A stretch of 64,000 bases of DNA, from the IMG/VR virus record IMGVR_UViG_3300028374_000002, positions 64,001 to 128,000 of that record. One strand, written 5' to 3'. A program made the position numbers and the translations under genes. The notes below the pieces were generated by a model that had not been told where the DNA came from, ran no database searches, and worked only from the letters and a program-made list of their open reading frames with translations. Below, in pieces: positions 1 to 36,008 of the stretch. Within the stretch, counting starts at the first letter, position 1. Every line of letters begins with the position of its first letter. The DNA comes from a virus (Duplodnaviria > Caudoviricetes).

Positions 1-1
1 C

Positions 2-229
2 CCAGAAGTAAATGGTAGAATAGATATAGAGGAAAATCCAGTAGATTTATTAGTACATACTTTCATTGATAATGCTGATAGCTTTATGATAGAAGATTTT
101 AACGACTATGAAATAGTTAGAAACAGAGATACTGTTATGTTAGATAGGCTTCAAACATTTATTAGAGATAACGATTTAGAGATGCCTAATTTGGATAACA
201 TTAAAGAACACTATAAAATAATAGAATAA
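2..229 (+). CDS. C-terminal part of an LRR-array protein (copy 0, truncated by the window edge)
   Basis: Translates PEVNGRIDIEENPVDLLVHTF...DRLQTFIRDNDLEMPNLDNIKEHYKIIE*, the same C-terminal cap as the six downstream paralogues. Confidence 0.9.
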   Translation, partial: PEVNGRIDIEENPVDLLVHTFIDNADSFMIEDFNDYEIVRNRDTVMLDRLQTFIRDNDLEMPNLDNIKEHYKIIE

Positions 230-230
230 A

Positions 231-899
231 ATGAAACATATAAAACCTTATAAAATATTCGAGAGCAATAGTCCTAAATTTCCAACTACAAGAGAGGAAG
301 TTATACAAGTGTGTAAAAAGTATAAAATAATAGATTATACTATTAATGATGATTTAAGTATTGATGTTGATGGTGATGTTGAATTATATAGACAAAGATT
401 AGAATATCTACCACTTAAATTTAATTATGTAAGTGGTAATTTTAATTGTTTTGTTAATAAATTAAAAACATTAGAAGGTAGTCCACAAACAGTATTTGGA
501 TATTTTAACTGTGGTGGCAATGAATTAAAATCGTTAGAAGGTAGTCCACAAACAGTAGGTGGGCGTTTTAATTGTTATTTTAATGAGTTAGTATCATTAG
601 AAGGTAGTCCACAAACAGTAGATGGTGATTTTGATTGTTCCTATAATGAATTAAAAGACTTAGAACATTTCCCAGAAGTAAATGGAACTATAGATATAGA
701 AGATAATATAGTATATTGTTTAGTATATACCTTTATTAATAAAGCGGATAGCTTTATGATAGAAGATTTTATAGACTATGAAATAGTTAGAAACAGAGAT
801 ACTGTTATGTTAGATAGGCTTCAAACTTTTATAAGAGATAACGATTTAGAAATGCCTAATCTGGAAGAAATTAAAAAAGACTATAAAATAATAGAATAA
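231..899 (+). CDS. Leucine-rich repeat protein, copy 1 (4 repeats)
   Basis: 21-aa units xFxCxxNxLxxLEGSPQTVxG between a conserved N-cap (MKHIKPYKIFE...) and C-cap (...YKIIE). Confidence 0.85.
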   Translation: MKHIKPYKIFESNSPKFPTTREEVIQVCKKYKIIDYTINDDLSIDVDGDVELYRQRLEYLPLKFNYVSGNFNCFVNKLKTLEGSPQTVFGYFNCGGNELKSLEGSPQTVGGRFNCYFNELVSLEGSPQTVDGDFDCSYNELKDLEHFPEVNGTIDIEDNIVYCLVYTFINKADSFMIEDFIDYEIVRNRDTVMLDRLQTFIRDNDLEMPNLEEIKKDYKIIE

Positions 900-901
900 A
901 C

Positions 902-1951
902 ATGAAACATATAAAACCTTATAAAATATTCGAGAATAAAAGTCCTAACTTCCCAACTACAAGGGATGAAGTTATAGAAGTGTGTAAAAGATATGGTATA
1001 GAAGACTACACTATTAATGATAATTTAAGCATTGATGTTGATGGTGATGTTGATTTAGGGAGGGTATACTTAGAATATTTACCACTTAAATTTAATTATG
1101 TGAGTGGTTATTTTGATTGTAATTATAATGAATTAAAGACATTAGAAGGTTGTCCAACAACAGTAGGGGGTAGCTTTTATTGCTATGGTAATCAATTAGA
1201 GACATTAGAAGGTTGTCCACAAACAATAGGTGGTGATTTTTATTGTAACATCAATATTTTAGAAACATTAGAAGGTTGTCCACAAACAGTAGAGGGTTAT
1301 TTTGATTGTAGCCATAATGGATTAACGTCATTAGAAGGTAGTCCACAAACAGTAACTGGGGGTTTTGGTTGTTCTAGCAATGAATTAACAACATTAAAAG
1401 GTTGTCCACAAACAGCGGGTAAGTATTTTGATTGCTCTTCTAATAAAAAATTAAAATCATTGAAGGGTTGTCCACAAAAAGTAGAGGGGGATTTTAATTG
1501 TAGTGGAAATAACTTAAAAACATTAGAAGGTGGCCCACAGACAGTGGGTGGTAATTTTCAGTGTTATTATAATAGTTTGGAAACATTAAAAGGTTGTCTA
1601 CAAACAGTAGATGGGGATTTTAATTGTCATTTTAATAAATTAGAAACACTAGAGGGTGGTCCACAAACAGTAAATGGGAATTTTCGTTGTTTTAATAATA
1701 AATTAAAAGACTTAGAACACTTCCCAGAAGTAAATGGTAGAATAGATATAAAGAAAAACACAGTAAATTTATTAGTATATACCTTTATTGAAAATGCTGA
1801 TAGTTTTATCGTAGAAGATTTTAACGACTATGAAATAGTTAGAAACAGAGATACTGTTATGTTAGATAGGCTTCAAACATTTATTAGAGATAACGATTTA
1901 GAGATGCCTAATTTGGATAACATTAAAGAACACTATAAAATAATAGAATAA
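902..1951 (+). CDS. Leucine-rich repeat protein, copy 2 (10 repeats)
   Basis: Ten FxCxxN-LxxLxG-PQTV units; same caps. Confidence 0.85.
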   Translation: MKHIKPYKIFENKSPNFPTTRDEVIEVCKRYGIEDYTINDNLSIDVDGDVDLGRVYLEYLPLKFNYVSGYFDCNYNELKTLEGCPTTVGGSFYCYGNQLETLEGCPQTIGGDFYCNINILETLEGCPQTVEGYFDCSHNGLTSLEGSPQTVTGGFGCSSNELTTLKGCPQTAGKYFDCSSNKKLKSLKGCPQKVEGDFNCSGNNLKTLEGGPQTVGGNFQCYYNSLETLKGCLQTVDGDFNCHFNKLETLEGGPQTVNGNFRCFNNKLKDLEHFPEVNGRIDIKKNTVNLLVYTFIENADSFIVEDFNDYEIVRNRDTVMLDRLQTFIRDNDLEMPNLDNIKEHYKIIE

Positions 1952-1952
1952 A

Positions 1953-2684
1953 ATGAAACATATAAAACCTTATAAAATATTCGAGAATAAAAGTCCTAAC
2001 TTCCCAACTACAAGAGAGGAAGTTATACAAGTGTGTGAAAAGTATGAAATAGAAAATTATACCATAAACGATGATTTAAGTATTGGTGTTGATGGTAGTG
2101 TATATTTAGAGAAGAAAAAATTAGAATACTTACCACTTAAATTTAATTATGTGAGTGGTAATTTTTATTGTCATCATAATAAATTAAAATCGTTAGAAGG
2201 TAGTCCACAAACAGTAGAGGGGGATTTTAAATGTGCTTATAATAAATTAAAGACATTAGAAGATAGCCCACAAACAGTAGGTGGGCGTTTTATTTGTTAT
2301 TTTAATGAGTTAGTATCATTAGAAGGTAGTCCACAAACAGTAGATGGTGATTTTGATTGTTCCTATAATGAATTAGAAACACTAGAGGGTGGTTCACAAA
2401 CAGTAAATGGTAATTTTGATTGTTATAGTAATGAATTAAAGGACTTAGAACATTTCCCAGAAGTAAATGGAACTATAGATATGGGGGCAAATCTAGTAAA
2501 TCTATTAGTATATACTTTTATTGAAAATGCTGATATCTTTATGATAGAAGATTTTATAGATTATGAAATAGTTAGAAATAGAGATACTGTTATGTTTGAC
2601 AGATTAGAAACTTTTATAAGAGATAATGATTTAAAAATGCCTGATTTGGAAGAAATTAAAAAACACTATAAAATAATAGAATAA
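1953..2684 (+). CDS. Leucine-rich repeat protein, copy 3 (5 repeats)
   Basis: Five repeat units; same caps. Confidence 0.85.
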   Translation: MKHIKPYKIFENKSPNFPTTREEVIQVCEKYEIENYTINDDLSIGVDGSVYLEKKKLEYLPLKFNYVSGNFYCHHNKLKSLEGSPQTVEGDFKCAYNKLKTLEDSPQTVGGRFICYFNELVSLEGSPQTVDGDFDCSYNELETLEGGSQTVNGNFDCYSNELKDLEHFPEVNGTIDMGANLVNLLVYTFIENADIFMIEDFIDYEIVRNRDTVMFDRLETFIRDNDLKMPDLEEIKKHYKIIE

Positions 2685-2686
2685 AC

Positions 2687-3484
2687 ATGAAACATATAAA
2701 ACCTTATAAAATATTCGAGAGCAATGGGCCTAACTTTCCAACTACAAAAGAGGAGGTTATAGAAGTGTGTAAAAAGTATAAAATAATAGATTATACTATT
2801 AATGATGATTTAAGTATTGATGTTGATAGTTATGTTAGATTAGATAGTAAAAATTTAGAATACTTACCACTTAGATTTAATTATGTGAGTGGTGGATTTT
2901 CTTGTTGTAGAAATATATTAGTATCGTTAGAAGGTAGTCCACAAACAGTAGGTGGTGATTTTGACTGTCAAGGTAATGAATTAAAAACATTAGAAGGTAG
3001 TCCACAAACAGTGGGTACTAACTTTGAATGTTCTTATAATAACAAACTAGAAACATTAGAAGGTTGTCCACAAACAGTTGGTGGTTATTTTGGTTGTTCA
3101 CTTAATGAATTAAAATCATTAAAAGGTTGTCCACAAACAGTAGGTGGTGATTTTGATTGTTTTGGAAATGAATTAAAATCATTAGAAGGTTGTCCATCGG
3201 TAGTTAATGGTAATTTTAATTGTTCTTTTAATAAATTAAAAGATTTAGAACACATATCAGAAGTAAGTGGTAATATAGACATAAGACACAATGTAGTATA
3301 TTTACTGATGTATACCTTCATTGATAAAGCTGATAGCTTTATGATAGAAGATTTTATAGACTATGAAATAGTTAGAAATAGAGATACTGTTATGTTAGAT
3401 AGGCTTCAAACATTTATTAGAGATAACGATTTAGAGATGCCTAATTTGGATAACATTAAAGAACACTATAAAATAATAGAATAA
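2687..3484 (+). CDS. Leucine-rich repeat protein, copy 4 (6 repeats)
   Basis: Six repeat units; same caps. Confidence 0.85.
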   Translation: MKHIKPYKIFESNGPNFPTTKEEVIEVCKKYKIIDYTINDDLSIDVDSYVRLDSKNLEYLPLRFNYVSGGFSCCRNILVSLEGSPQTVGGDFDCQGNELKTLEGSPQTVGTNFECSYNNKLETLEGCPQTVGGYFGCSLNELKSLKGCPQTVGGDFDCFGNELKSLEGCPSVVNGNFNCSFNKLKDLEHISEVSGNIDIRHNVVYLLMYTFIDKADSFMIEDFIDYEIVRNRDTVMLDRLQTFIRDNDLEMPNLDNIKEHYKIIE

Positions 3485-3486
3485 AC

Positions 3487-4098
3487 ATGAAACATATAAA
3501 ACCTTATAAGATATTCGAGAGTGTTGGTCCTAACTTCCCAACTACAAGAAAGGAAGTTATACAAGTGTGTAATGGGTATAGAATAAAAAACTATACTATT
3601 AATGATGATTTAAGTATCGATGTTGATGGTGATGTTCATTTATATAGTAAAAATTTAGAATACTTACCACTTAGATTTAGTTATGTGAGTGGTGCATTTC
3701 TATGTTATGATAATGAATTAAAAACATTAGAAGGTTGTCCACAAACAGTAGGTAGGTCTTTTTCCTGTTCTAATAATTTTTTAGTATCGTTGAAAGGATG
3801 TCCACAAACAGTACGTGGTAGTTTTAATTGCTCTTATAATAAAATAACAGACTTAGAACACTTTCCAGAAGATAGTCAGGTCATATACATAGAAAATAAT
3901 CCAATATACAATCTAATAAATACGTTTATTTTTAAACCAAAAACTGATAGCTTTATGATAGAAGACTTTATAGATTATGAAATAGTTAGAAACAGAGATA
4001 CTGTTATGTTAGATAGACTTCAAACATTCATTAGAGATAACGATTTAGAAATGCCTGACTTAGAAGAAATTAAAAAAAAATATAAAATAATAGAATAG
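3487..4098 (+). CDS. Leucine-rich repeat protein, copy 5 (3 repeats)
   Basis: Three repeat units; same caps. Confidence 0.85.
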   Translation: MKHIKPYKIFESVGPNFPTTRKEVIQVCNGYRIKNYTINDDLSIDVDGDVHLYSKNLEYLPLRFSYVSGAFLCYDNELKTLEGCPQTVGRSFSCSNNFLVSLKGCPQTVRGSFNCSYNKITDLEHFPEDSQVIYIENNPIYNLINTFIFKPKTDSFMIEDFIDYEIVRNRDTVMLDRLQTFIRDNDLEMPDLEEIKKKYKIIE

Positions 4099-4100
4099 AC

Positions 4101-4832
4101 ATGAAACATATAAAACCTTATAAGATATTCGAAAGCAATGGTCCTAAATTTCCAACTACAAGAGAGGAAGTTATACAAGTGTGTAAAAAGTATAAAATAA
4201 TAGATTATACTATTAATGATGATTTGAGCATTGATGTTGATGGTGGTGTATATTTAAACAGAAGATACTTAGAATATTTACCACTTAAATTTAATTATGT
4301 GAGTGGTAATTTTTATTGTCATCATAATAAATTAAAATCGTTAGAAGGTAGTCCACAAACAGTAGAGGGGGATTTTAAATGTTATTTTAATAAATTAAAG
4401 ACATTAGAAGGATGTCCACAAACGATTAGTGGTAGTTTTAATTGCTCTGATAATTATTTGAAACTATTAAAAGGTTGTCCACAAACAGTAGATGGTAGCT
4501 TTGATTGTTCATATAATAAATTAATATCATTAGAGGATGGTCCACAAACAGTAGGTGGTTATTTTGAATGCGATAATAATAAATTAACTGATATGGAACA
4601 CTTCCCAGAAGTAAATGGTCCTATAATCATAGATGGGAATCCAGTAAACTCTTTAATATTTACCTTTATCAAAAACGCAGATAGTTTTCTCATAGAAGAT
4701 TTCGTAGATTATGAAATAGTTAGAAATGGCGATACTGTTATGTTAGATAGGCTTCGAACTTTAATTAATGATAATGATTTAAAAATGCCTGACTTAGAAG
4801 GTATTAAAAAGCACTATAAAATAATAGAATAA
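4101..4832 (+). CDS. Leucine-rich repeat protein, copy 6 (5 repeats)
   Basis: Five repeat units; same caps; last gene of the array. Confidence 0.85.
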   Translation: MKHIKPYKIFESNGPKFPTTREEVIQVCKKYKIIDYTINDDLSIDVDGGVYLNRRYLEYLPLKFNYVSGNFYCHHNKLKSLEGSPQTVEGDFKCYFNKLKTLEGCPQTISGSFNCSDNYLKLLKGCPQTVDGSFDCSYNKLISLEDGPQTVGGYFECDNNKLTDMEHFPEVNGPIIIDGNPVNSLIFTFIKNADSFLIEDFVDYEIVRNGDTVMLDRLRTLINDNDLKMPDLEGIKKHYKIIE

Positions 4833-4835
4833 TGA

Positions 4836-5108
4836 TTAAATATCACTTAAATCAAAATTTGTTGTTTTTATTTTATAACAATTTGTCCAAAACTCAGTCA
4901 CAAAGTCTATAACAGTATCTGATTTAATTCTATCATTTTTATTTATCTCATTCTTTTCAGTATCACTAGAACATCTTTGGACATCAGCAATACCAGCAAA
5001 GAAGAATATATAAGCTTCTCCAATTTCTATGACATCAGTGTTTTCATAACATTCAAAATCATACTCTACATTTGAATGTCCTTCAATTTCTCTCTTAAAA
5101 TTTTTCAT
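4836..5108 (-). CDS. Hypothetical protein (likely start ATG 5108, MKNFKREIEG)
   Basis: ORF with ATG about 22 nt downstream of a TATATTTG element. Confidence 0.65.
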   Translation of the reverse strand: MKNFKREIEGHSNVEYDFECYENTDVIEIGEAYIFFFAGIADVQRCSSDTEKNEINKNDRIKSDTVIDFVTEFWTNCYKIKTTNFDLSDI

Positions 5109-5129
5109 AGTACAAATTGTTTTATAAAG

Positions 5130-5137
5130 CAAATATA
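5130..5137 (-). promoter_or_regulatory. Bacteroidota-type sigma70 -7 element TAnnTTTG (TATATTTG)
   Basis: Exact match to the consensus, intergenic, oriented toward the 5108 start. Confidence 0.55.
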
Positions 5138-5303
5138 CAACATATAATATGAAAACCTAATAAATATAGATAATAATTATAAAGGGAGGTGTTTATATTA
5201 ATATATACGTTAGCTGTTCACTGCTTATGTCGGATATCATTATGGTGTCTTAAAGATTTGATTAAGAATCAAAGATATAGGTTTAAAAATAAAAAGAATA
5301 ACT

Positions 5304-6140
5304 ATGAAAAAACAAATTTTAAATCCTAAGCCTAATGCTTGGGTCGTATCTTCTAAAGACAAAGGAAGAAAATCGATTAAAAATGGAAAAGTTTATCTAA
5401 AAAATAAAGAAAACTTTGAAATAGAATTATTTAATCCACTAAGTGAAAATATCTTAGCAGATATTAAGATAAATAAGACTTCTATTTCAGAAAATGGACT
5501 CATTGTAAAACCAGGACAAAGAGTATATTTAGACTGCTTTATTGACGACTTAAAAAAGTTTATATTTGAAACATATAATATTGAGGAATCACCAGAAGCC
5601 AAAGAAGCTATTTCTAATAATGGTGTGGTTGATGTATATTTCTATAAAGAAGAAGTGAAACAATTTAACATACCATTGAACCAATATTGGTATGGTGGAT
5701 ATCAGAAATATCCAATTACTTACCCCCATCCCTATCCTTGGTGTACATACACTACTAATACTGGAACGAGTTTTAATTTAAATAGTGGTAATTATACATT
5801 AACTAATAATAGTTCATCTAATTCAACGTTAACTAGTGATGTTCTTGGATTAGATGTAAGTAGTAGTATTGAAACTGGAAGAGTTGAAAGGGGTGATGTT
5901 TCAAATCAAAACTTTCAAAGTGTAGAAATGGATTTCGAAAGCTATTGTATATCTTCTGTTTCTATTATGCTATTACCAGAGAGTATAAAGCCTATTGAAA
6001 TAATTAAAAAGAAAGGTAAATCAAAAAATTCAGATGGTGTTATAGAATTAATAAACAAATTACATAATTTACTTGAAAGTGATGTTATAACAGAAGAAGA
6101 ATTTTCTAATAAAAAGAAAGAACTCCTCAATAGAATATAA
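5304..6140 (+). CDS. Hypothetical protein with C-terminal SHOCT-like domain
   Basis: C-terminus IELINKLHNLLESDVITEEEFSNKKKELL matches the SHOCT pattern LxxLxxLxxxGxITEEEFxxxKxxLL. Confidence 0.6.
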   Translation: MKKQILNPKPNAWVVSSKDKGRKSIKNGKVYLKNKENFEIELFNPLSENILADIKINKTSISENGLIVKPGQRVYLDCFIDDLKKFIFETYNIEESPEAKEAISNNGVVDVYFYKEEVKQFNIPLNQYWYGGYQKYPITYPHPYPWCTYTTNTGTSFNLNSGNYTLTNNSSSNSTLTSDVLGLDVSSSIETGRVERGDVSNQNFQSVEMDFESYCISSVSIMLLPESIKPIEIIKKKGKSKNSDGVIELINKLHNLLESDVITEEEFSNKKKELLNRI

Positions 6141-6161
6141 ATTAATAATCGAACAGCTATT

Positions 6162-6192
6162 AAAAACCACTATGAACACATAGTGGTTTTTT
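6162..6192 (+). terminator. Rho-independent terminator
   Basis: AAAAACCACTATG-aaca-CATAGTGGTTTTT hairpin with T tract after the 6140 stop. Confidence 0.8.
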
Positions 6193-6218
6193 AATATATA
6201 ATAAAAATAACCATAAAT

Positions 6219-7460
6219 ATGTTCATTAAGAAATATATAGAATTCATAAAAGAGGCAAATGAGGCGAATGTCAAATTAGACATACCGAAAAAATTCACAA
6301 GACAAGATATAGAGGAATTTTTCTTAGATTTTACTGATAATGAATGGGATATGTATATAAATAAAGATATTATAGAGACAGCTCTTCTAAGAGAAGAATA
6401 TCATATAAGAGACTTAATGATAGGATTAGATGAAGAATATTACCTAGTATATGATGTGGAGTTTAGTGCTAATTCAAACACATCAAGTGATAATGTTTCT
6501 TTAATATCTGCAATAGAGTTTATTACTAACTATACAAAGTCATTAACTGATTATGATGTAGTTATAAAGATAGACAACGGTATAGTTGATGTGGATGAGA
6601 TATTCATTAATGAAAATAATGAATTTATAGATAAAAGAACAGGATCTAATTTAGGAAATTATGGGATAATCACAATAGTTGATCACTTAATAGGGAGTAT
6701 AACAGCTAAGCAGCTCTTCCAACATTATGACTTTAAATATGATTATGAGAAAGATGGTAATGTATTTGTGGATATAGCATATACCGAACTTATAAAATAT
6801 GTGAATGATGAGGATTATGAGAATATTTTAAATAATGGATATACAGAATATGAAGATTATGGAGACTATGATATGAATTTACATGATTTGCTTTCTTTAT
6901 TAAACAAAGAAAATTTTTATTTGTTAATAGACATCTTTGTAAAAGAGCAAAATGGATGGGAATCATATTATGAAAATGAGTTTAAAGAACTAAATATAGA
7001 AGAAGGTATAGATTCTATTGATAAATTTAAAAGCTTCTTATATAATGAAAGATTCCATGATACATCAGATGAAGTATTTGATACTAGTGATGATACCATA
7101 ATATCTTTAAAACTTACTATTAGAGATTTGGAATTAAGAAGATTAGAATTTGATTATTTCAAGATAGTAGAAAATGCATTTGAAAAAAAGATTTTAGAAT
7201 CAATAGGTGGTGAAGTTATTACCAAAGAAAATAAAGAATCTAGTGATAAATTTTTTAGAGTACCATATAAGCAAGAATGGGTAGAGGGATCAGATTTTGA
7301 TGTTAATGATATGACACAGTGTGATATCGATGAAATTTTTGAGGAATATATGTCAAATTCTTGGTCATATGATTTAAAAATATCAGCACCAGAATCTTCA
7401 TCAATTAATAATGATGAACTAAACCAAGGTATTAATGAATTCTTGAAAGGTATTAGCTAA
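6219..7460 (+). CDS. Acidic hypothetical protein with MFIKKYIEFIKE N-terminus
   Basis: 413-aa ORF preceded by TAATATATA (6192-6200). Confidence 0.7.
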   Translation: MFIKKYIEFIKEANEANVKLDIPKKFTRQDIEEFFLDFTDNEWDMYINKDIIETALLREEYHIRDLMIGLDEEYYLVYDVEFSANSNTSSDNVSLISAIEFITNYTKSLTDYDVVIKIDNGIVDVDEIFINENNEFIDKRTGSNLGNYGIITIVDHLIGSITAKQLFQHYDFKYDYEKDGNVFVDIAYTELIKYVNDEDYENILNNGYTEYEDYGDYDMNLHDLLSLLNKENFYLLIDIFVKEQNGWESYYENEFKELNIEEGIDSIDKFKSFLYNERFHDTSDEVFDTSDDTIISLKLTIRDLELRRLEFDYFKIVENAFEKKILESIGGEVITKENKESSDKFFRVPYKQEWVEGSDFDVNDMTQCDIDEIFEEYMSNSWSYDLKISAPESSSINNDELNQGINEFLKGIS

Positions 7461-8026
7461 TAATCAGATACATTTAAATACTCTTTAAGCTTTAAAATCA
7501 TATAGTCAGTTATCAAATCAGATGTATTTAGTGAATCTACGAATTTAGCATCAACCTTGACAGATTTACTCATAGACTCAGCCTTAGAACCATCACCACT
7601 AGCTAATCCTTCATCATAATCTCTCTCACTCAAAGGAATTATATAGCCATAATATTTATTAGTATGAGCTTTATTTATAAAGAGTGGTTTTAGTTCATCA
7701 AATAAGTAACCATCTTTTATTATTATACCAGCTTCTTCTTCTAATTCTCTTAACACTGCTTCTTCTTTAGACTCCCCCTCTTCTACACCACCACTAAGGA
7801 CTGTTATATGGTACTCCTGCCCTTCTCTATACTTATATGTCGGTATGTACTCATGGCGTATTAAAAATTGATTAGACTCTATGAAATAAGGTATACAGAC
7901 AACTAAATCCTTTTCTTCAATTATAGACCAACCTTCGTAATCAATTACTTTAATATATTCGTTATCAAAGAGAATATTATCTTTCTTTTCTTTAGGTTTC
8001 TTTTTTAAGCTAGAAAATTTGTCCAT
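7457..8026 (-). CDS. NUDIX hydrolase (ADP-ribose pyrophosphatase-like)
   Basis: Nudix box GGVEEGESKEEAVLRELEEEAGI (GX5EX7REUXEEXGU). Confidence 0.9.
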   Translation of the reverse strand: MDKFSSLKKKPKEKKDNILFDNEYIKVIDYEGWSIIEEKDLVVCIPYFIESNQFLIRHEYIPTYKYREGQEYHITVLSGGVEEGESKEEAVLRELEEEAGIIIKDGYLFDELKPLFINKAHTNKYYGYIIPLSERDYDEGLASGDGSKAESMSKSVKVDAKFVDSLNTSDLITDYMILKLKEYLNVSDY

Positions 8027-8070
8027 TATTAGATATTAATTTTACTTATATATTAAAAACAATACATTGC

Positions 8071-8649
8071 TTAACACTCAAAAGGAGGATCTCTGAACAA
8101 ATGGATGTAATCAACACCAAAAATATGCCCTAAATCTTGATGGTTTTTTAAACCACCCATCCTTATTTTTTCATTTATTATATTGAGTGGGTTGTCTAGA
8201 ACATAACCACATATCTCACCATTTTCACAACCTATTTGCTTATCATCTCTCGTAAAAATATCAATTAATAATATCTCTTCCTTGTCCCTTATTCTACCTA
8301 TTAATTTAGATATAAATCCCCTAACAACCTTTTGCTTATGTGGTATTTCAATATATCCTAGTCTATTTACCTCTATATCATTGTCATAGCAATCTCTTAG
8401 AACAAAGGTTTTATATTTATGCGAACAACTTTTTTTAATGATTATATCATAATCATTTGGAAGTCTGTCTATAACTCCGTAAATATATAAGCAAGCTGAT
8501 CCAGTTATTATATAATCTTCTATTTCTTCATCGATAGAATTATATTTATCCTTAAGAATATTAAATCTATCCAAGGAAGGCTTTAAAATAGTTTTGTCAT
8601 TAATTATAGATATTTTATAATTCCTGAAGCACTCTTTAATATTACTCAT
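8071..8649 (-). CDS. Pol-beta-type nucleotidyltransferase domain protein
   Basis: IITGSACL...PNDYDII (GS and DxD motifs) plus distal IDIF. Confidence 0.65.
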   Translation of the reverse strand: MSNIKECFRNYKISIINDKTILKPSLDRFNILKDKYNSIDEEIEDYIITGSACLYIYGVIDRLPNDYDIIIKKSCSHKYKTFVLRDCYDNDIEVNRLGYIEIPHKQKVVRGFISKLIGRIRDKEEILLIDIFTRDDKQIGCENGEICGYVLDNPLNIINEKIRMGGLKNHQDLGHIFGVDYIHLFRDPPFEC

Positions 8650-8730
8650 AATTTTATTTTTAATATGTGTTATCTAGGTATTTTCTAAACTAATTAGTAT
8701 ATCAACTCTGTTAAATGAACTACACAAACA

Positions 8731-9672
8731 TCATTCATTTTTTTTTAAATCTTCTATCTCTTTTAATAACTTCTTAATTTTATCATCAGAATCTATGTTA
8801 ATATTTTTATTAGATTCTTTGCTTTTTAGTTCACTAGCGTTAGTACTAAATAAATCCCCTTTAAAGTTAATAGTCCCATCCTGTGATAAAGTTGATATGT
8901 ATTCAAAATGAACTTGATAGTATTGATTTAGATTAACACCATTCAGTAGTTCGTGTCTATAACCATCAAAAAATGACCACAATTCTCTGCTTATATCAAC
9001 CATTCTATAATTACTAATAACTCTAGCTACTATATATTTATTGCTTCCGAACGTTTTAATCTTTAAAACCTCTCCCTCTTTATATTTTACTTTTGAGGTA
9101 AATGCAGTCTTTCTTTCTGTCTGTATTAACTTTTCTACTGTGTATATTTTAGCGTTCAGATGCTCTGGTATAAATAAGCCATTATTTACAGGTTGTATTA
9201 TTTCTTTATTACTATTTATTAAGTTTAAATACTTACCATCCATAAGTTCGTCATAACCAGGAACTCTATTGTATTTAGTACCTTTTCTATTATCAAATTT
9301 GAAATGCCTTAACAAGATATTACATAGGTGGTTAAATGTCTGTGGGGCTACCTCTGGTAACTTTGACAACCCAGTACCATAGCCACCACTAGAAAATACG
9401 ATTGTGTTTCCCTCTAGTGCAAGTTTTTTTAATCTTAATACATCATCATCAATTTTTTGAGTATTAGATTTTAAATCTTTATCATTATAGAAAGATAGTG
9501 GCTTATTATTAGGTCCTATTTTAGTTCTGATTCCAAAGGTATTATCCAGACCTCTTATTACAGCTTGTCCACCTTTCCCAACCCTAGCGTTATTATCACC
9601 AAATACAAAAATATCACGACTACCAAGTACATCCTTCCTCTGCCAATTCCCCTCAAATATTTTTATCTTCAT
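8731..9672 (-). CDS. Macro-domain-like (ADP-ribose-binding fold) protein with C-terminal extension
   Basis: IFVFGDN..RVGKGGQAVIR..NTFGIRTK and IVFSSGGYGTGLSKL resemble phage macro-like families. Confidence 0.5.
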   Translation of the reverse strand: MKIKIFEGNWQRKDVLGSRDIFVFGDNNARVGKGGQAVIRGLDNTFGIRTKIGPNNKPLSFYNDKDLKSNTQKIDDDVLRLKKLALEGNTIVFSSGGYGTGLSKLPEVAPQTFNHLCNILLRHFKFDNRKGTKYNRVPGYDELMDGKYLNLINSNKEIIQPVNNGLFIPEHLNAKIYTVEKLIQTERKTAFTSKVKYKEGEVLKIKTFGSNKYIVARVISNYRMVDISRELWSFFDGYRHELLNGVNLNQYYQVHFEYISTLSQDGTINFKGDLFSTNASELKSKESNKNINIDSDDKIKKLLKEIEDLKKNE

Positions 9673-10019
9673 TATTTAATTTTTTGTTTTGGTAAATTTG
9701 AAAATGTTGGTCTTTTTACACCAACCTCACCTTTGAATATAATATCCATTTTTCGGTGACGTTCCATTGATAAAGACTTAAAAGAATTTAAATCTATTTG
9801 TATTGCATTAATGTTATATTCCTTAATTAAAGCTTTTTCATGCTTGCCATACTCTACATAATTAAATTCTTCTAAATAGGTAAGTTCATCATAGTAATCA
9901 TCATTATAAAAGAATCTATAAAATGCATCATCATCACAATCTAAATTATTGTAATACACCTCATCTGATAAACAAGATTGGTGTCTTTTCTCATCCGAAA
10001 CTTTATATACATAACACAT
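9672..10019 (-). CDS. Hypothetical protein
   Basis: 115-aa ORF whose stop overlaps the next gene's start. Confidence 0.6.
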   Translation of the reverse strand: MCYVYKVSDEKRHQSCLSDEVYYNNLDCDDDAFYRFFYNDDYYDELTYLEEFNYVEYGKHEKALIKEYNINAIQIDLNSFKSLSMERHRKMDIIFKGEVGVKRPTFSNLPKQKIK

Positions 10020-10035
10020 AATCTATCTATTAAAT

Positions 10036-10305
10036 TCATCCGACTATCTCTTTTATTTTACATTCTCTGGTTATTCCTTTATTATAGTTAAATATAACCT
10101 TAATGTTTATTACATCACCATTTGATGTAATAACAAGGCTATATTCTATATCTTTTAATTTATTAGGTAGATAAGACATTACAAACAATCTAGCATCATC
10201 CATATTCATTAAATTATTAGTATTGTATCTAATAATATTCTGACTGAATAATATGTGATTGTTTGAATCTTTACACTTCTCTATATACATTTCTATATTA
10301 ACCAT
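10036..10305 (-). CDS. Hypothetical protein
   Basis: 89-aa ORF downstream of TATATTTG (10365-10372). Confidence 0.55.
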   Translation of the reverse strand: MVNIEMYIEKCKDSNNHILFSQNIIRYNTNNLMNMDDARLFVMSYLPNKLKDIEYSLVITSNGDVINIKVIFNYNKGITRECKIKEIVG

Positions 10306-10364
10306 ATTAATTTTTATCAGTTTTAAATTGAAATTTAGTTATTATGTTTTATTTTTTTGATAAG

Positions 10365-10372
10365 CAAATATA
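10365..10372 (-). promoter_or_regulatory. Bacteroidota-type -7 element TATATTTG
   Basis: Intergenic, oriented toward the 10305 start. Confidence 0.5.
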
Positions 10373-10393
10373 GTGTATTTATAATACACTAGC

Positions 10394-10439
10394 AATAATT
10401 TAACCCCATATTTCTTTATAGATATGGGGTTAAATTATT
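10394..10439. terminator. 18-bp inverted repeat, probable terminator of the minus-strand LRR gene
   Basis: AATAATTTAACCCCATAT...ATATGGGGTTAAATTATT. Confidence 0.7.
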
Positions 10440-10467
10440 ATGATAAGAGAACTTAATTAATTAAATT

Positions 10468-10926
10468 TTATTTAATGTTATTACCATCAGATTGTACCTT
10501 TTTCATTTGTTTTTGATTCAATCCTTTTAATGAAGTTAACTGATTATTTCTACAATCGAAATTACGAGCGTGTGAAGGAGATCCTACCAAAGTCTCTAAT
10601 TTATTATATGAACAATCAAAATCACGAACATGTGAAGGGGATCCTTTCAAATTTTTCAATTTATTTTTACTACAGTCAAAGTCCTTTACAACCTCTTTAG
10701 GAGACCCAACTAATGACTCTAATTTATTGTCTTGACAATAGAAACTCCCACCGACCATTGAAAAGGTGATTGGTAATTTGGCTAAATTTTTATTAGCTAA
10801 ATTAACATCGCCTTTTACATCGATACTACCATTGCTATTTACTGTGTAATTCTTTATGCCAAATTTTTCACATAGTGTGTCTATATCACTTTCTACGCTT
10901 TCATTAAATGTTTTCAAATGCTTCAT
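10468..10926 (-). CDS. Solo LRR protein, a distant homologue of the array lacking the C-cap
   Basis: MKHLKTFNES start; NYTVNSNGSIDVKGDV N-cap; four FxCxxNxLxxLxGSP units. Confidence 0.8.
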   Translation of the reverse strand: MKHLKTFNESVESDIDTLCEKFGIKNYTVNSNGSIDVKGDVNLANKNLAKLPITFSMVGGSFYCQDNKLESLVGSPKEVVKDFDCSKNKLKNLKGSPSHVRDFDCSYNKLETLVGSPSHARNFDCRNNQLTSLKGLNQKQMKKVQSDGNNIK

Positions 10927-10972
10927 AACTTTTTTTATAGTTATATATAAAAGTTTTTATATGATAAATATA

Positions 10973-11575
10973 TTAATTTTTATAATTTTCTATAATTACC
11001 CTATTATTCATTATTTCTCTTATTTCAACATATGATTTTGGTGTATAGTTAATAACATTACAGCCTACATCTTCAATTTTTCTTCTATATAGAATATCTT
11101 TCTGTGTAGCATATAAAGACCCATGTGTATGTCCGTGTAGCATCCAAGACCCTACATGGCATTTGTTCCATACTATAATAGGATAATGCGATAATACAAT
11201 CATTTGAAAGCCACCATTTCTTTCAGTATCTACAATACTTTCATCCTTTACATAAATCTCAGTACCATAACTTATTATATCTTCAAATCTATTAGTTTTT
11301 AAGATGTTTTTATAACTATCGTGGTTTCCTAGTATAAAATAAATAGTACCATTTAAGGAATCTGCTATTTCTTTTCTTATAGCTGTGCCACTAAAGCTAA
11401 AATCACCTAAAAAGTATACTATATCACCATCTTTTACCACTGAGTTCCAGTTATTTATTAAACATTCATTCATATCATCAATGTTTGGAAATGGTCTCTT
11501 GTCAAAATCTAATATTTTTTTGTGACAAAAATGTAAATCACTTATAAAAAATATATTTTGTTTAAAATGTTTCAT
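10973..11575 (-). CDS. Calcineurin-like metallophosphoesterase
   Basis: Motifs SDLHF, GDFS, GNHD, SHYP, HGHTH. Confidence 0.9.
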   Translation of the reverse strand: MKHFKQNIFFISDLHFCHKKILDFDKRPFPNIDDMNECLINNWNSVVKDGDIVYFLGDFSFSGTAIRKEIADSLNGTIYFILGNHDSYKNILKTNRFEDIISYGTEIYVKDESIVDTERNGGFQMIVLSHYPIIVWNKCHVGSWMLHGHTHGSLYATQKDILYRRKIEDVGCNVINYTPKSYVEIREIMNNRVIIENYKN

Positions 11576-11591
11576 CTATTTAGTTTTTGTA

Positions 11592-11599
11592 CAAATATA
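11592..11599 (-). promoter_or_regulatory. Bacteroidota-type -7 element TATATTTG
   Basis: 16 nt upstream of the metallophosphoesterase ATG. Confidence 0.55.
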
Positions 11600-11629
11600 G
11601 GGTAAATGGTTCAATATAATATATAATCT

Positions 11630-11923
11630 ATGAAAAAATTTACAAAAGTATTAGAAGGTAAGGAGTTGGGTTATACAGATTTCTTTGGTAATAAAGTGAG
11701 TCCAGAAAAAGATTTTATCAAAATGTTAAAATCTGGCATTACCCATATTATGATGGAAGAAGGAGAGATTTCAGAAAAAGCTTTTAAAGAAATTGATGAA
11801 GTTATAGAACAAGTAGATAAATTGATTACTAAAGAATTAGTACAAGAGGCTATGGATATGCATAGACAAGATAAAAGAATTAAATTAATTTGTGAGTTTA
11901 TATATGATAAATATATAAACTAA
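11630..11923 (+). CDS. Hypothetical protein (MKKFTKVLEG N-terminus)
   Basis: ORF preceded by TAATATATA at 11617. Confidence 0.65.
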   Translation: MKKFTKVLEGKELGYTDFFGNKVSPEKDFIKMLKSGITHIMMEEGEISEKAFKEIDEVIEQVDKLITKELVQEAMDMHRQDKRIKLICEFIYDKYIN

Positions 11924-11960
11924 TTAATATTTTAGTATATAATAGTAAAATAATAGTAAA

Positions 11961-12212
11961 ATGAGCAAAATTCCTACATCAACCAATCTTATATCATCTA
12001 ATCTTATATCATCTAATCTTACAAACAATACGAGTTTAGTATTTAGTGATAATAATACTTTCACTAATTGTGTCACTGCTACTTCAATAACCCTCAAAGA
12101 TGAAAAAGATGGAAGTGAATGGTGTATAAAGATATATGATGGTGAACTAATAATAGAGCCTGTTGATAAGGTTGCTAAGCGAAACTATAATATTAAGAGA
12201 GTTTTGAAATAG
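11961..12212 (+). CDS. Hypothetical protein
   Basis: 83-aa ORF containing a short 15-bp tandem duplication (NLISS x2). Confidence 0.55.
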   Translation: MSKIPTSTNLISSNLISSNLTNNTSLVFSDNNTFTNCVTATSITLKDEKDGSEWCIKIYDGELIIEPVDKVAKRNYNIKRVLK

Positions 12213-12485
12213 TTATTTTTTAATTATTCTTATTATTAGATTACCATTACCCTTTATTATCCTATGGTAGGTCTCTTTAGGTATAAATGTATTTTCTGTT
12301 ATGCTTTTAGGTAATTCGTTATCCAATTGTATTTTCCAATTACACTCATTTATACATGTAATATATCTATCCTCTTCATCACGATGCCAAACCATTTCAT
12401 TAGATGGAATAGCTTGTGAAAACTCTCTTATGAAAGTGTTTTTACTTATCTTATTTTCTGTATAAGGATTCTCCATATTCACCAA
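12213..12485 (-). CDS. Cupin-like small protein
   Basis: MVWHRDEEDR...WKIQLDNELP...FIPKETYHRIIKG resembles a cupin beta-barrel with His/Glu metal ligands. Confidence 0.5.
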   Translation of the reverse strand: MVNMENPYTENKISKNTFIREFSQAIPSNEMVWHRDEEDRYITCINECNWKIQLDNELPKSITENTFIPKETYHRIIKGNGNLIIRIIKK

Positions 12486-13072
12486 TAGCTATTTGATTGA
12501 CCACTAATACCTAAAGAATCTGCATATCTTGGCAACCTACATGACCAATATCCAGCAGTTGTCTTATCTTTTTTATTCTTACAGTCATGCCTAGCCGCAA
12601 AGTTTTTACTAGCTTCTTTATCATCTAATTTAACACTAAGTCCACCTTTTTTATCACCAAAGTTTATCTTTATTATATTCCCAGTATCTGGATTTTTAAC
12701 ATATACTTTATATTTCTTTGGACCACTTGACCGAGTTGGTTTGTTTATTTCTACTTTTTTACCACCTTTATATTCGTGTTTCTTCTCTTCTATTATGTAC
12801 TCATCTGATTCAGAAGGTATATCTAATGGTACTTTTATACCTTTATAAATCCCATATCTGCCTATATCAGTATTTTCATAGAGTTCCATATCTAAATCAA
12901 CCAATTCTATAACACCATCTTCGTATAGATTTCTAACTTCTTCTAGAAGTATGTAAAATGACTCAGAACCAGTTCTAAATATATTATTTGTAAAACTTAT
13001 ACTATTATCAATGTGATATTTTATATTTTCTGATACTAATCTATAATCACTAAATTTTTTAATTATCCCCAT
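12479..13072 (-). CDS. Conserved phage hypothetical protein
   Basis: C-terminal KKYKVYV...INFGD...FAARHDC...AGYWSC block typical of T4-like phage hypotheticals. Confidence 0.6.
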   Translation of the reverse strand: MGIIKKFSDYRLVSENIKYHIDNSISFTNNIFRTGSESFYILLEEVRNLYEDGVIELVDLDMELYENTDIGRYGIYKGIKVPLDIPSESDEYIIEEKKHEYKGGKKVEINKPTRSSGPKKYKVYVKNPDTGNIIKINFGDKKGGLSVKLDDKEASKNFAARHDCKNKKDKTTAGYWSCRLPRYADSLGISGQSNSYW

Positions 13073-13430
13073 GTTTGTTTATTATTTTATCAAAAACCAT
13101 TTGACATTTTTCATATTCTTCGTTTAATTCCAATGTTTTCAAATATACCATTAATTCCCTTTTATCAGATAACATATACCTTATTAAGAACTTTATTTCC
13201 ATTATCTGGTCTATATCTTCGGATTTAGTAAATATTATAGAATTGACTATATCTTGGTCTATATCTTTCATGTTATTATAAGAGTTCCAATCATTTATTC
13301 CTTTATCTTTTATTAATTTAAGTATTTCTTTAGATATTAGTTTAGACCTAACACATCTTTTATATTTTTTACTAAACACTCTCCGTAGAAAACTATCATT
13401 TAAATATTTGATGTATCTCCTAATATTCAT
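13059..13430 (-). CDS. Hypothetical protein with UVR-like C-terminal helix (likely start 13430)
   Basis: MNIRRYIKY start directly after a reverse TAATATATA (13435-13443); C-terminus LELNEEYEKCQMVFDKI. Confidence 0.55.
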   Translation of the reverse strand: MNIRRYIKYLNDSFLRRVFSKKYKRCVRSKLISKEILKLIKDKGINDWNSYNNMKDIDQDIVNSIIFTKSEDIDQIMEIKFLIRYMLSDKRELMVYLKTLELNEEYEKCQMVFDKIINKHGDN

Positions 13431-13499
13431 ACTATATATATTAAAACACACTAGCAAGAAAGACTAAAATTAATATATAAATCAAATATAATATCTTGA

Positions 13500-16400
13500 A
13501 TGTCTAATCACGAAAATCTAATTTGGTTTAATAAAGAAGGAGATTTCCTTAATTTCAATTATAATGAATCAGTTAATAGATTCGAGGGAGATATACTCTT
13601 CCATGAGAGCTCTACTGATATATATAAAACATACGGACTTTATATGTTTGAAGACGTACCATCATTTGACTTTGAAAGACCTAATGAATTAACTACAAGA
13701 AAGTTTCAGTTGTTTAATGAGAGGGGAATACACTTTTATGGCACTGACTTAAAAAGCCAAGACATAACTAAAATAGAACCAGTAAACAACGATGTCGGAT
13801 TTTATTCTAAATGGATATATGGTGATGATTTCCAAGCTAAGTTTCCAATTGGAACTATTGTATCATTCGATAATCCTTTCTTGGAGTTCAATAACCCTAA
13901 TAAGACCTACGTAGTTTCTGGTAATAAAAGCAATGCTATACTTATACTATCACAAGTAGATAATAAAAGCTTTGAAATAGATTATCAACAACTCTATGAA
14001 AATGAAAACTCTTATATAAACCAAAAATTATCTGGTGTCAATTGTATTGGTGTTTATGATTATATAGATATAGAAACTTATAAAGAAAAGTTATCAGATT
14101 GGAGCGAACCAGAATTTTATGATAAATATTTTATAGGCAAAAAATTGAATATAATAAATTCTAAATTAAACGACAAAGTAGTTACTGTTGATAACACAAA
14201 ACTTATTGACTTAATCCACTATGAATATTTATTACATAAGGATGAATTACCAGATGATAAAGACTTTATTATTGAGGTGATATCAAAAACCGATTTACCA
14301 AGGATATATAATGGGGGAATAGTTATAGATAGTGATAGTAGGATAAACATAGATCCAAACTTTTATCCAGCTATCATAAAACCTGGTACTGAGTTCAAAA
14401 TAGAGGGAAGTATAAACAGTGATGTGTTTTTAAGAGTATCTGATTTGAGAAATTGGGATGGGATATTAACAACAACCGATTTTATAGTGGGTGACCAAGT
14501 TACATTCAACAACAGAATATTTCAGTGTAAAGAGAATTATGTACAATCTTTTTCAAATATTGAAACATCATCAATCACACCTAGTAATAGCGAAAAATGG
14601 GGTAGACCCGATTATATAAAAATAGAACAAATATTACAACCAGATAATATATCATTAGGTCAGTTATACCTTACTACAGATAGATTTTATTTCACTTATA
14701 GTTGGGATACTAACAAAGAAATAACACTAGCATCTGCAATAGAAAAATATAAAGATGATTTAAATTTATTTAACATAGACCTATATTATGAGAATAATCA
14801 GGTTAATGCTGATTTGGTTTATCCAAGCCAGTATGCTAATGTCAATTTTTATCACACTGAGGCTATAAATACCAATAAAATTGGAGGATTTTTTAAAGCC
14901 ATAGAAAGACTAGTTGGTGTTGGAGAAGATTTAGATTACGAACTTAATTATAATAATTCAGAACTTTTTGATTTTAAAATAGTTTTTACAGACATAGATG
15001 AATTTGGTATAAAGGTAAATATAAATGGTATGATATATGAAGAAGAAGTTAGCTTTATATTTTCGGGAAACTCTATTGATGTAGAAAGAACAATAGATAG
15101 AACACTTAGAAACTGGTTGAGTAGAAATTATATCGAATTATTTAAACTAGGTATAGATATTCAACTTAGATTTTCTGGAAACACTACTTCTCTTTTCTAT
15201 AATTCAATCAGAGTATTATCACAATATCCAAATGTACCTGTTAGCGTGGATGATGTATTAGTTGGGACAACTGCTAATTATTATATAGAACATTCAAGAG
15301 TATTATTTAGAGACTTGGGTGGGTATCTAGATATAAGAATAAATGGTATATCATATGGTGTACAAACTATTTATAATAGTAGTACTAACACACCAGATGT
15401 GATATCAACAATAAGCAAATGGGTTAGAGAACACAATAATAGATTGAATGATTTTGGTATAATTGTCAAAAACATAAATCAACTTTTGATATTTGATATA
15501 AAAGACCTAAAGAGAAGATTAGACTATACTATAACAACTGGTAAGGTTAATATACCTGGGTTAAAAGACTTTGAGATAAATAACTTAATAAAGGGCAATG
15601 AGGGTGTTATAATATCATCAAATGAAATCCTATTACCAAGAGATAGAGATGAGAGTTTAGAAGATTTTGAAGAATATGGATTTGCAACTGGTATGGCTTT
15701 GAGTATAAACAATACTATATATTCTTTAGTTAATCAAGAATATACTATCCAATACCTAGACCCACTCATAATGAATATAAGTTATGAAGGCCCATTTTGG
15801 GGACTTACATCTAGTATTTGTAATTCATCTGCATTTGTAACATTGGCATTTGATAATGGTTATGGTTTAACTGGATGTGGTGAACCGTTATCCCCAGATA
15901 GAACAATTACAAGTCCGTTTAATACTGAATTTAGAAACTTAGAGCCAGATAATAATTTAAATCTAGATAAAAGTAATAGTCAGTTTAAGATTGATTTTAA
16001 TGCTAATGACTATGAAGTTATCGAATTTGATTTAAATAGATTTTCTGGTGCTGATAATATGGTTGATATAATCTATATACAGAACTCTAACTCTATATAC
16101 ACACTAGCAGACTCTCTTATAGTTCACAATGCATCAACATCAAATATTGTTACAATAATTGACCTAATAAATAACATCGGAAGTATAAAACTTAAATATA
16201 ATAATATTAATAATTATTTGTATGCACTAACTATTAATAGCATGTATATTATAAATCCCTTAACAAATATGGTAATTGGGATTGTAGAATTTCAAAATAA
16301 TGGAGAAGCTTTTGATATAGACTTTAATCCATTGAATGGTGATGTTTATGTAACATTTTCTAATCTACCAGAAATATCAATATGGGGGAGTATAAACTTA

Positions 16401-34377: not shown

Positions 34378-34443
34378 ATTTTTAAAATAATTTATAACTT
34401 TTTGGTTTACTTCTACTATAATAGATATATAAAAAATTTATTT

Positions 34444-35970: not shown

Positions 35971-36008
35971 GTAGGCGAAGTCATATAATATATAAGTAAA
36001 TAATTCAG

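Follow-up and report, generated by a model that had tools for sequence, protein, structure and literature searches.

The stretch of DNA analysed here (the window, 64,000 nucleotides in length) corresponds to bases 64001-128000 of the 201,264-bp IMG/VR record IMGVR_UViG_3300028374_000002, hereafter G000, which has a G+C content of 28% and represents about 28% of its genome according to CheckV completeness. The window opens on a head-to-tail array of co-oriented genes, separated from each other by 1-2 nt, whose products are built from leucine-rich repeats (LRRs) of 21 residues (Table 1). With genes defined by the open reading frame (ORF) listing and repeats counted by parsing the proteins, six complete genes and a cut one were found, just as an earlier note on this DNA had claimed when it reported at least seven genes of the same family with 3-10 copies of the repeat. 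A repeat finder returned the corresponding 63-nt unit 27 times in the window, and the sequences of both gene ends, N- and C-terminal, return at intervals of one gene. Counting those that are nearly complete, the record has 25 members of the family, lined up head to tail in three arrays, plus two divergent single genes; the LRR matches of the divergent solitary member in the window were all sub-threshold in a Pfam scan. On the sister contig L014 (labels of this type denote related or independent assembled contigs that we compared with G000) the left array consists of five genes, and the phage consequently has at least 27 LRR genes.

Table 1. LRR genes, arrays and sequence signals, with positions given in window or in G000 coordinates.
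Feature	Reference	Position	Strand	Length (aa)	Repeats	Remarks
LRR gene, 3' part	window	2..229	+	201 (full)	3 (full)	fourth gene of middle array; full gene G000 63624-64229
LRR gene	window	231..899	+	222	4	from 252, plus junction to next gene, reproduced by L020
LRR gene	window	902..1951	+	349	10	exact protein on three independent contigs, L020-L022
LRR gene	window	1953..2684	+	243	5	member used for folding
LRR gene	window	2687..3484	+	265	6	
LRR gene	window	3487..4098	+	203	3	
LRR gene	window	4101..4832	+	243	5	last of array
Divergent solitary member	window	10468..10926	-	152	4	leader MKHLKTFNES; without C-terminal domain
Left array	G000	1-2233	-			cut by contig end
Middle array	G000	61424-68832	+			ten genes; window holds last six and a half
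Right array	G000	183146-192328				twelve genes
Leader example	window	231..263	+	11		11 codons, MKHIKPYKIFE
Junction example	window	882..904	+			TATAAAATAATAGAATAR + 1-2 nt + ATG; encodes C-terminal YKIIE + stop
TAATATATA example	window	6197-6205				upstream of 6219
TAATATATA example	G000	61411-61419				
Leader-bearing ORFans (examples)	window	6219, 24915, 33951, 44022				others across G000
Leader-bearing ORFans (examples)	window	13072, 43906	-			

The proteins follow a common layout, in which an 11-residue leader is succeeded by an N-terminal cap (N-cap), 2-11 LRRs and a helical C-terminal domain of about 65 residues. An AlphaFold (AF2) model of the protein encoded at 1953-2684, computed from an alignment of 34 sequences and with a mean predicted local distance difference test score (pLDDT) of 78, leaves residues 1-14 disordered, places residues 20-160 in a solenoid with two short strands per repeat and a pLDDT above 90, and continues with a capping repeat and a helical C-terminal region of lower confidence. 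The earlier reading of the proteins as LRR solenoids with constant caps is thus supported. The repeat has the consensus G-x-F-x-C-x-x-N-x-L-x-[ST]-L-E-G-[SCG]-P-Q-T-V-x, and the invariance of F3, C5, N8 and L13 in 82 internal units is that expected of the 21-residue repeat and the asparagine ladder of the LRR superfamily. A profile of the family matches Internalin-J from Listeria (InlJ; 3bz5) with an E-value of 2.6e-15 and with the cysteine columns in register over successive repeats; by this alignment, the repeat is a cysteine-ladder LRR of the Internalin-J type. The cysteine ladder of InlJ is said to have been described by Bublitz et al. in 2008. Both families share the 21-residue period, the asparagine ladder, the replacement of a core leucine by cysteine in every repeat, and the solenoid. 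Internalin-J, however, is one large surface-anchored bacterial adhesin, whereas the phage LRR proteins are soluble, measure 180-349 residues, possess a leader and a C-terminal domain of their own and come in at least 27 hypervariable copies. They carry neither a signal peptide nor a hydrophobic or membrane segment, and they are acidic with net charges of -5 to -21.

A Foldseek search retrieved uncharacterised bacterial LRR models from the AlphaFold DB (39-43% identity, template modelling score up to 0.88 depending on the hit), which begin at query residues 17-20, so that these cellular homologues lack the leader; against the PDB it returned only rows for YopM and IpaH, weak and with E-values above 0.1. 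When the C-terminal 74 residues were searched over 1.8 billion representatives, matches were confined to the LRR family itself. A role of this domain as a shared docking module was hence ruled out, as it is found in no other protein, including fibre-like ones. A word-index search of metagenomes yielded 879 homologues at an E-value of 0.001 or better, all unnamed, and in the ESM Atlas at least 78 clusters, each with about 50-115 members and all viral, are related to the family. The Pfam scan gave nothing above the cut-off for any of the six complete LRR genes of the window, and across the LRR family there is no named member and no Pfam domain. Single-copy homologues exist in some Vibrio phages. 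A hypothetical protein of Vibrio phage VB_VaC_SRILMA, for example, has the same type of 21-residue repeat (G-x-F-x-C-x-x-N-x-L-T-S-L-E-G-A-P-Q-S-V), but it is the product of a single gene with eight near-identical repeats, without the MKHIKPY leader, the YKIIE C-terminal domain or an array.

Variation within the repeat is focused on a few positions. Entropy in the internal units amounts to 2.9-3.5 bits at positions 2, 4, 6 and 7, and to 0 at the four invariant positions named above, in agreement with the earlier claim that the variation resides at the x positions of the strand face. Because of beta-strand alternation and the alignment with InlJ, positions 2, 4, 6 and 7, which flank the core phenylalanine and cysteine, are predicted to face away from the sheet. 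Over-represented at these positions are Ser, Asn, Tyr, Asp, Phe, Gly and His, while Lys is 11-fold depleted. A per-site check of selection at this variable face found the per-codon non-synonymous diversity to exceed the synonymous one (pN > pS) at repeat positions 2, 4, 6, 7, 9 and 21. The nucleotide diversity of the hypervariable codons is 0.69 at the first and 0.64 at the second base (mean 0.66) and thereby near saturation, compared with 0.20 at four-fold degenerate third positions of scaffold codons, a ratio of 3.3 (2.4-4.7 when bootstrapped over genes). The third base of the hypervariable codons is T in about 80% of cases, in four-fold families as well, against about 50% genome-wide; as the third base stays T, non-synonymous change has outrun synonymous change. 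Taken together, the three measures indicate diversifying selection, and not a mere relaxation of constraint.

The paralogues exchange sequence with each other. Four near-identical patches that the earlier note had pointed out were all recovered exactly: window 546-653 and 2268-2375 (108 nt, 1 mismatch), 2130-2234 and 4278-4382 (105 nt, 0 mismatches), 271-355 and 4141-4225 (85 nt, 0 mismatches), and 90-264 and 1812-1986 (175 nt, 0 mismatches), the latter spanning a gene junction. Such long identical runs are beyond chance, because the background identity of the caps is 71-91%; in permutation tests on the alignments of the N-caps and of the C-terminal caps (C-caps), the observed mean and the top-ten identical runs beat 300 of 300 column shuffles. 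For most genes the nearest neighbour by N-cap differs from the nearest by C-cap, and the genes starting at G000 62157 and 65953, for example, have N-caps that are 100% and C-caps that are 86% identical. The closest relative of a repeat unit lies in another gene for 101 of 107 units, and for about half of these in another array. The gene at 3487-4098 has its nearest paralogue in the last gene of the right array (G000 191717), 124 kb away, with 94% identity in the N-cap and 98% in the repeat units. A few units have been duplicated within one gene, thereby changing its repeat number. Since the closest pairs of units occupy the same ordinal position in different genes, exchange appears to have taken place in register between whole genes, through duplication and patchy gene conversion, and not by the shuffling of cassettes. 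The cap permutation tests and the neighbours of the repeat units consequently uphold the gene conversion and unequal crossing-over that had been inferred earlier, but they do not support the idea of modules moved to new positions.

A comparison with closely related strains revealed how quickly the arrays change. In contig L045 the flank is 98.75% identical to the record over 7.4 kb, and 99.7-99.8% identical in the nearest 1.8 kb, but identity is 79% over the last two and a half genes of the array, with the switch occurring exactly at the array end. Contig L044 shares 99% identity in both flanks and is without the first three genes of the right array. In L032, where the array lies internal to a 141-kb contig that is 98.2% identical downstream, there are three genes (8, 5 and 6 repeats) as opposed to ten here, and each of the three is at most about 85% identical to the copies of this record. 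The array is therefore not invariant between near-identical strains; invariance, combined with purifying selection at the concave residues, is the outcome that the earlier note had set beforehand as contradicting its proposal. With 79% identity against 98-99.8% in the flanks, the arrays are the fastest-evolving locus of an otherwise almost clonal genome, a pattern suggestive of a direct contact with the host in an arms race.

The organisation of the arrays also hints at how their genes might be expressed. The sequence TATAAAATAATAGAATAR, which closes one gene shortly before the ATG of the next, is identical at each of the 21 inner junctions whose upstream gene is intact at its end, and the one exception follows a decayed remnant. 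There is no synonymous change in the YKIIE-stop codons (18 aligned C-caps, 21 junctions), while neighbouring codons vary freely. These frozen codons suggest a constraint at the nucleotide level, and the last five codons probably double as the A-rich, Shine-Dalgarno-less initiation region of the following gene. The junction motif TAATAGAAT shows no association with other gene starts, and it was consequently ruled out as a variant of a general promoter. At the head of each array, TAATATATA stands before the first gene and ends 4 nt before its ATG. This sequence occurs 78 times in the record, in 61 of the 78 cases within 80 nt upstream of an ORF start, at a spacing of either 4 nt (20 cases) or 18-22 nt, and the genes that follow it include those for the portal, for topoisomerase II and for homing endonucleases. 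A general phage promoter is its probable role, and the 4-nt spacing class implies mRNAs with no leader or next to none; when considered as a marker of late or virion genes, TAATATATA gave no indication of timing, on account of the topoisomerase II and homing endonuclease genes that it precedes. Within the right array, the decayed 3' end of a lost LRR copy (..DLKEIKK.., G000 187246-187332) is fused in frame ahead of the gene at 187291, and the junction at G000 188014 carries a 10-nt duplication, AATAGAATAA.

The record stems from a phage, as the earlier note had assumed. Its major capsid protein matches T4 Gp23 (PF07068, E-value 2e-27) and its portal T4 Gp20 (E-value 3e-53). A 712-aa protein encoded next to the capsid gene has a weak N-terminal match to Peptidase_S77 (hmmscan E-value 0.0025, 17.8 bits, cut-off 27); a direct genome search for Peptidase_S77 gave no match, a result of little weight as control genomes were unmatched too. 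A giant eukaryotic virus (Nucleocytoviricota) was considered and dropped: the search of the record for VLTF3 was negative, as was that for Capsid_NCLDV, although the latter carries little weight since it matched none of the control genomes either, and T4-like capsid and portal genes are present instead, which together argue for a megaphage. The capsid protein is 74% identical to those of uncultured phages of 634-642 kb and 53-55% identical to those of phages of 636-735 kb. These phages of 634-735 kb, the closest relatives, are the largest members of the Mahaphage clade, for which Bacteroidetes hosts have been predicted (PMC7162821). As judged from these markers, the phage is a Mahaphage-type megaphage with a T4-like head, and its host probably belongs to the Bacteroidetes. 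Gene starts across G000 show no Shine-Dalgarno signal (G 3-9% at -16 to -5) and are rich in A (57-69% at -16 to -9), with T in 64% of cases at -1, and such A-rich starts fit translation initiation of the Bacteroidetes type. The runs that contain the sequence are lake and salt-lake metagenomes from 2017 and 2019. To our knowledge, huge phages are known from metagenomes alone, and roles have not been assigned to most of their genes. The complete 735-kb Mahaphage (L054; LR756501, 230945-243547) carries a four-gene tandem array of distant family members, whose products have an additional N-terminal domain of about 90 residues and leaders of the same type but lack the YKIIE C-terminal domain.

The leader is present on every array copy, and its residues M1, H3, I4, K5, Y7, I9, F10 and E11 are invariant in the 34-sequence alignment, so that it forms the most conserved part of the N-terminal region even though it is modelled as disordered. 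Its codons vary synonymously (His CAC/CAT, Tyr TAT/TAC, Lys AAA/AAG, Phe TTC/TTT, Glu GAA/GAG), and the constraint hence acts on the peptide. Of 196 ORFs outside the family, 13 have the core [ILV]-K-x-[FY]-x-x-[FY] among their first 14 residues, a 60-fold enrichment over the 0.21 expected from the internal frequency of the motif. At least 13 otherwise unrelated ORFans start with a leader of the pattern M-K-x-[IL]-K-x-[FY]-x-x-[FY] and a subsequent Glu. A Pfam scan of eleven of these leader-bearing ORFans assigned none to a family, and one matches solely a PHROG of unknown function. An ankyrin-repeat protein (G000 129797-131842) has a similar N-terminus, and in the 735-kb relative the same kind of leader is found on the LRR genes and on their neighbours.

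The prohead protease of phage T4 cleaves after [LI]-x-E, a rule that the invariant I9-F10-E11 of the leader fits. In T4 itself (AF158101), the internal proteins IpII and IpIII begin with MKTYQEFIAE and IpI with MKTFKEF. The T4 internal proteins are diverse anti-restriction (anti-defence) proteins that have only the capsid-targeting sequence in common (PMC3012670). The likeness to the LRR family thus consists in a short N-terminal MK leader with a hydrophobic-x-Glu end that is carried by unrelated, fast-evolving proteins in a phage with a T4-type head. There is, however, no homology beyond the character of the leader, and the LRR proteins are larger and acidic, whereas IpII and IpIII are basic. 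A T4-like leader on every copy, and on unrelated ORFans as well, makes an injection together with the DNA plausible, if unproven.

Collectively, these data show what the family is and show or strongly indicate how it evolves, and to both parts, taken jointly, we assign a probability of about 0.7: small, soluble, acidic LRR proteins, encoded by at least 27 genes in three arrays of a Mahaphage-type megaphage, diversify in the germline through birth-and-death evolution with in-register gene conversion. Tandem duplication and loss of genes supply and remove copies, unequal crossing-over alters the numbers of genes and repeats, and gene conversion in register spreads sequence between paralogues within and between arrays, while positive selection acts on the strand-face residues, so that positions 2, 4, 6 and 7 approach randomness and the scaffold residues remain fixed. 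The inner genes of an array are probably translated via the frozen 3' end of the preceding gene. Birth-and-death families of binders are familiar from the internalins of Listeria, plant NLR clusters, and the ankyrin or FNIP/LRR paralogue arrays of giant viruses. The phage family resembles them in its tandem duplication, unequal crossing-over and gene conversion, and in the positive selection that acts on its binding face, but differs in that its members are bacteriophage genes packed 1-2 nt apart and possess a common N-terminal leader. The LRR proteins most likely constitute a library of binders for variable host molecules, conceivably the defence proteins or receptors suggested in the earlier note, and this library has most likely been diversified by ordinary duplication, gene conversion and selection, not by programmed shuffling as in lampreys. 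The compact cysteine-ladder LRR, in which four positions of every repeat tolerate change, is also a natural scaffold for the engineering of binders.

How the binders might reach their targets is a question on which we can offer only a tentative proposal, by analogy to T4. The common leader would mark the LRR proteins and the other ORFans for one fate, the leading candidate for which is targeting to the prohead in the manner of T4, cleavage after I-x-E, and delivery with the DNA into the next cell. We consider this route via the capsid possible, with the odds clearly against it. The same guarded estimate applies to the fuller scenario, in which the leader-bearing proteins would be packaged, trimmed after Glu11 and injected, and would there act as a pre-made library of hypervariable binders that neutralises the defence proteins of the respective strain. 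If this were true, the phage would possess an injected, germline-encoded, antibody-like counter-defence repertoire, with dozens of binders entering each new cell. If the leader were indeed a capsid-targeting signal, the idea of the T4 internal proteins would be extended from a few proteins to a large library of binders, and the leader motif would provide a handle to list the injected proteins of uncultured megaphages.

Several observations weigh against these interpretations. Homogenisation of the scaffold by gene conversion can inflate the diversity ratio of 3.3 that we use as an argument for selection. The gene order in window 1996-3575 relies on this record alone, and part of the variation between samples may be due to path switching by the assembler. 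As far as delivery is concerned, the candidate for the prohead protease scores under its Pfam cut-off, the negative charge of the LRR proteins, which sets them apart from the basic IpII and IpIII, is awkward for packing beside DNA, and the occurrence of TAATATATA before the topoisomerase II and homing endonuclease genes means that this sequence conveys nothing about timing.

The last two of these points are shared by the alternative that fares best, according to which the LRR proteins are never packaged. They would instead be synthesised from the incoming genome and work in the cytoplasm as binders or adaptors by which host proteins are hijacked or inhibited, and the leader would serve another role, for instance that of a degron or of a tag for chaperones or for assembly. 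Soluble acidic proteins devoid of a signal peptide or membrane segment are what one would expect in this case, their charge is unfavourable in a DNA-filled head, and TAATATATA is not limited to structural genes. Set against this are the presence of the leader on many unrelated ORFans, its I-x-E end, which resembles the T4 capsid-targeting sequence, and the combination of a T4-type head with a gp21-like candidate protease. We regard a purely intracellular function as doubtful, although it is a serious contender.

A location on the virion surface or tail strikes us as unlikely. The C-terminal domain would in that case dock on a fibre or the baseplate, and the variable LRR face would read structures of the host surface, which would provide a repertoire for host range. 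Internalin-J is itself an adhesin, and the hypervariability of the arrays between strains would suit host recognition. Our literature searches on huge phages and megaphages yielded no description of LRR arrays; the nearest case is that of the jumbo phage Goslar, for which LRR or beta-helix domains have been proposed as host-recognition modules on paralogous tail-associated proteins (PMC13742148). The C-terminal domain of the family studied here is, however, confined to the LRR proteins and occurs on no fibre-like protein, the relatives in the 735-kb phage do without it, and the proteins are small monomers without fibre-like or trimerisation features.

The mosaic pattern and the differences between samples could also result largely from assembly, namely from path switching at shared k-mers, and the earlier note had named mis-assembly as a danger. 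The contigs in question are short-read assemblies, and those of several samples of the same phage end inside the arrays. L017 and L018 switch paralogue inside the array and are exact patchworks of this record's own paralogues; they may represent real deletion variants or path switches by the assembler. Logan contigs from four runs cover 29-30 of 30 array bins, but only in short exact pieces of 80-370 nt, none of which spans a gene. Much of the locus has nevertheless been assembled more than once. Three independent contigs reproduce window 252-1996 (99.9-100% identity), and with it the 10-repeat gene and the junction patch of 175 nt, part of window 2274-2790 is reproduced by independent contig sequence, and L016 is 99.7% identical over 3575-5300 and 99.9% over 3575-14832, while L014 and L015 agree on the left array. 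Moreover, ambiguity in an assembly graph itself requires shared patches in the reads. The arrays of L045, L032 and L044 include stretches for which identity to any of the paralogues in G000 reaches only 79-93%, and these arrays are hence not chimeras of this record's copies. The gene order is thereby verified in part, and an origin of the pattern largely in assembly seems quite unlikely to us.

Very improbable is hypermutation in the style of a diversity-generating retroelement (DGR), in which adenine-specific mutagenesis of AAT codons would write the variable codons. The hypervariable codons are indeed overwhelmingly NNT with randomised first two bases, as mutagenesis of AAT would give, but rapid change at codon positions 1 and 2 combined with selection against Lys, Glu and stop explains NNT equally well. 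A search for a reverse transcriptase (PF00078) found no match in the 201-kb record, which covers about 28% of the genome, and no template repeat was seen. More than 100 units in 27 genes vary at synonymous scaffold sites, whereas regions written by a DGR match their template outside adenines.

Programmed assembly as in the variable lymphocyte receptors (VLRs) of lampreys and hagfish, with cassettes copied into recipient genes during infection, would account for the constant caps, the variable module number and the mosaic patches, but it is scarcely credible here: every copy is a complete ORF that has a start and a stop of its own, neither cassette-only donors nor an incomplete recipient flanked by donors are present, exchange occurs in register, and identical alleles recur in samples from different years. 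The VLR-like mechanism put forward in the earlier note accordingly finds no support, and the comparison holds for architecture only. An LRR scaffold, constant caps, a variable number of modules and hypervariable strand-face residues are common to both, yet a VLR arises somatically, when donor cassettes are built into a single incomplete gene, whereas the phage copies are complete germline genes that exchange sequence in register over evolutionary time.

Some features in the vicinity of the arrays and elsewhere in the window deserve mention. Within the right LRR array, G000 186461-187183 encodes a 240-aa non-LRR ORFan with the leader MKHIKLYEEY. On L014, the region upstream of the left array (1-9948) contains genes for a DNA methylase, a DUF285 fragment, two DUF7487 proteins and a DUF2201 protein, and a PolyA_pol-family nucleotidyltransferase and a 2H phosphoesterase are encoded downstream. 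Window 21562-24450 (minus strand) holds a 962-aa ORF without Pfam match in a local G+C peak (0.36 versus 0.27-0.29). The 1932-aa protein encoded at 13500-19298 carries a CBM_5_12 carbohydrate-binding module near its C-terminus and is possibly a fibre or host-recognition protein. Finally, in window 34402-37793, the ORF of a family B DNA polymerase ends at 522 residues and is followed by a GIY-YIG/NUMOD3 homing endonuclease gene, so that the polymerase appears to be split.

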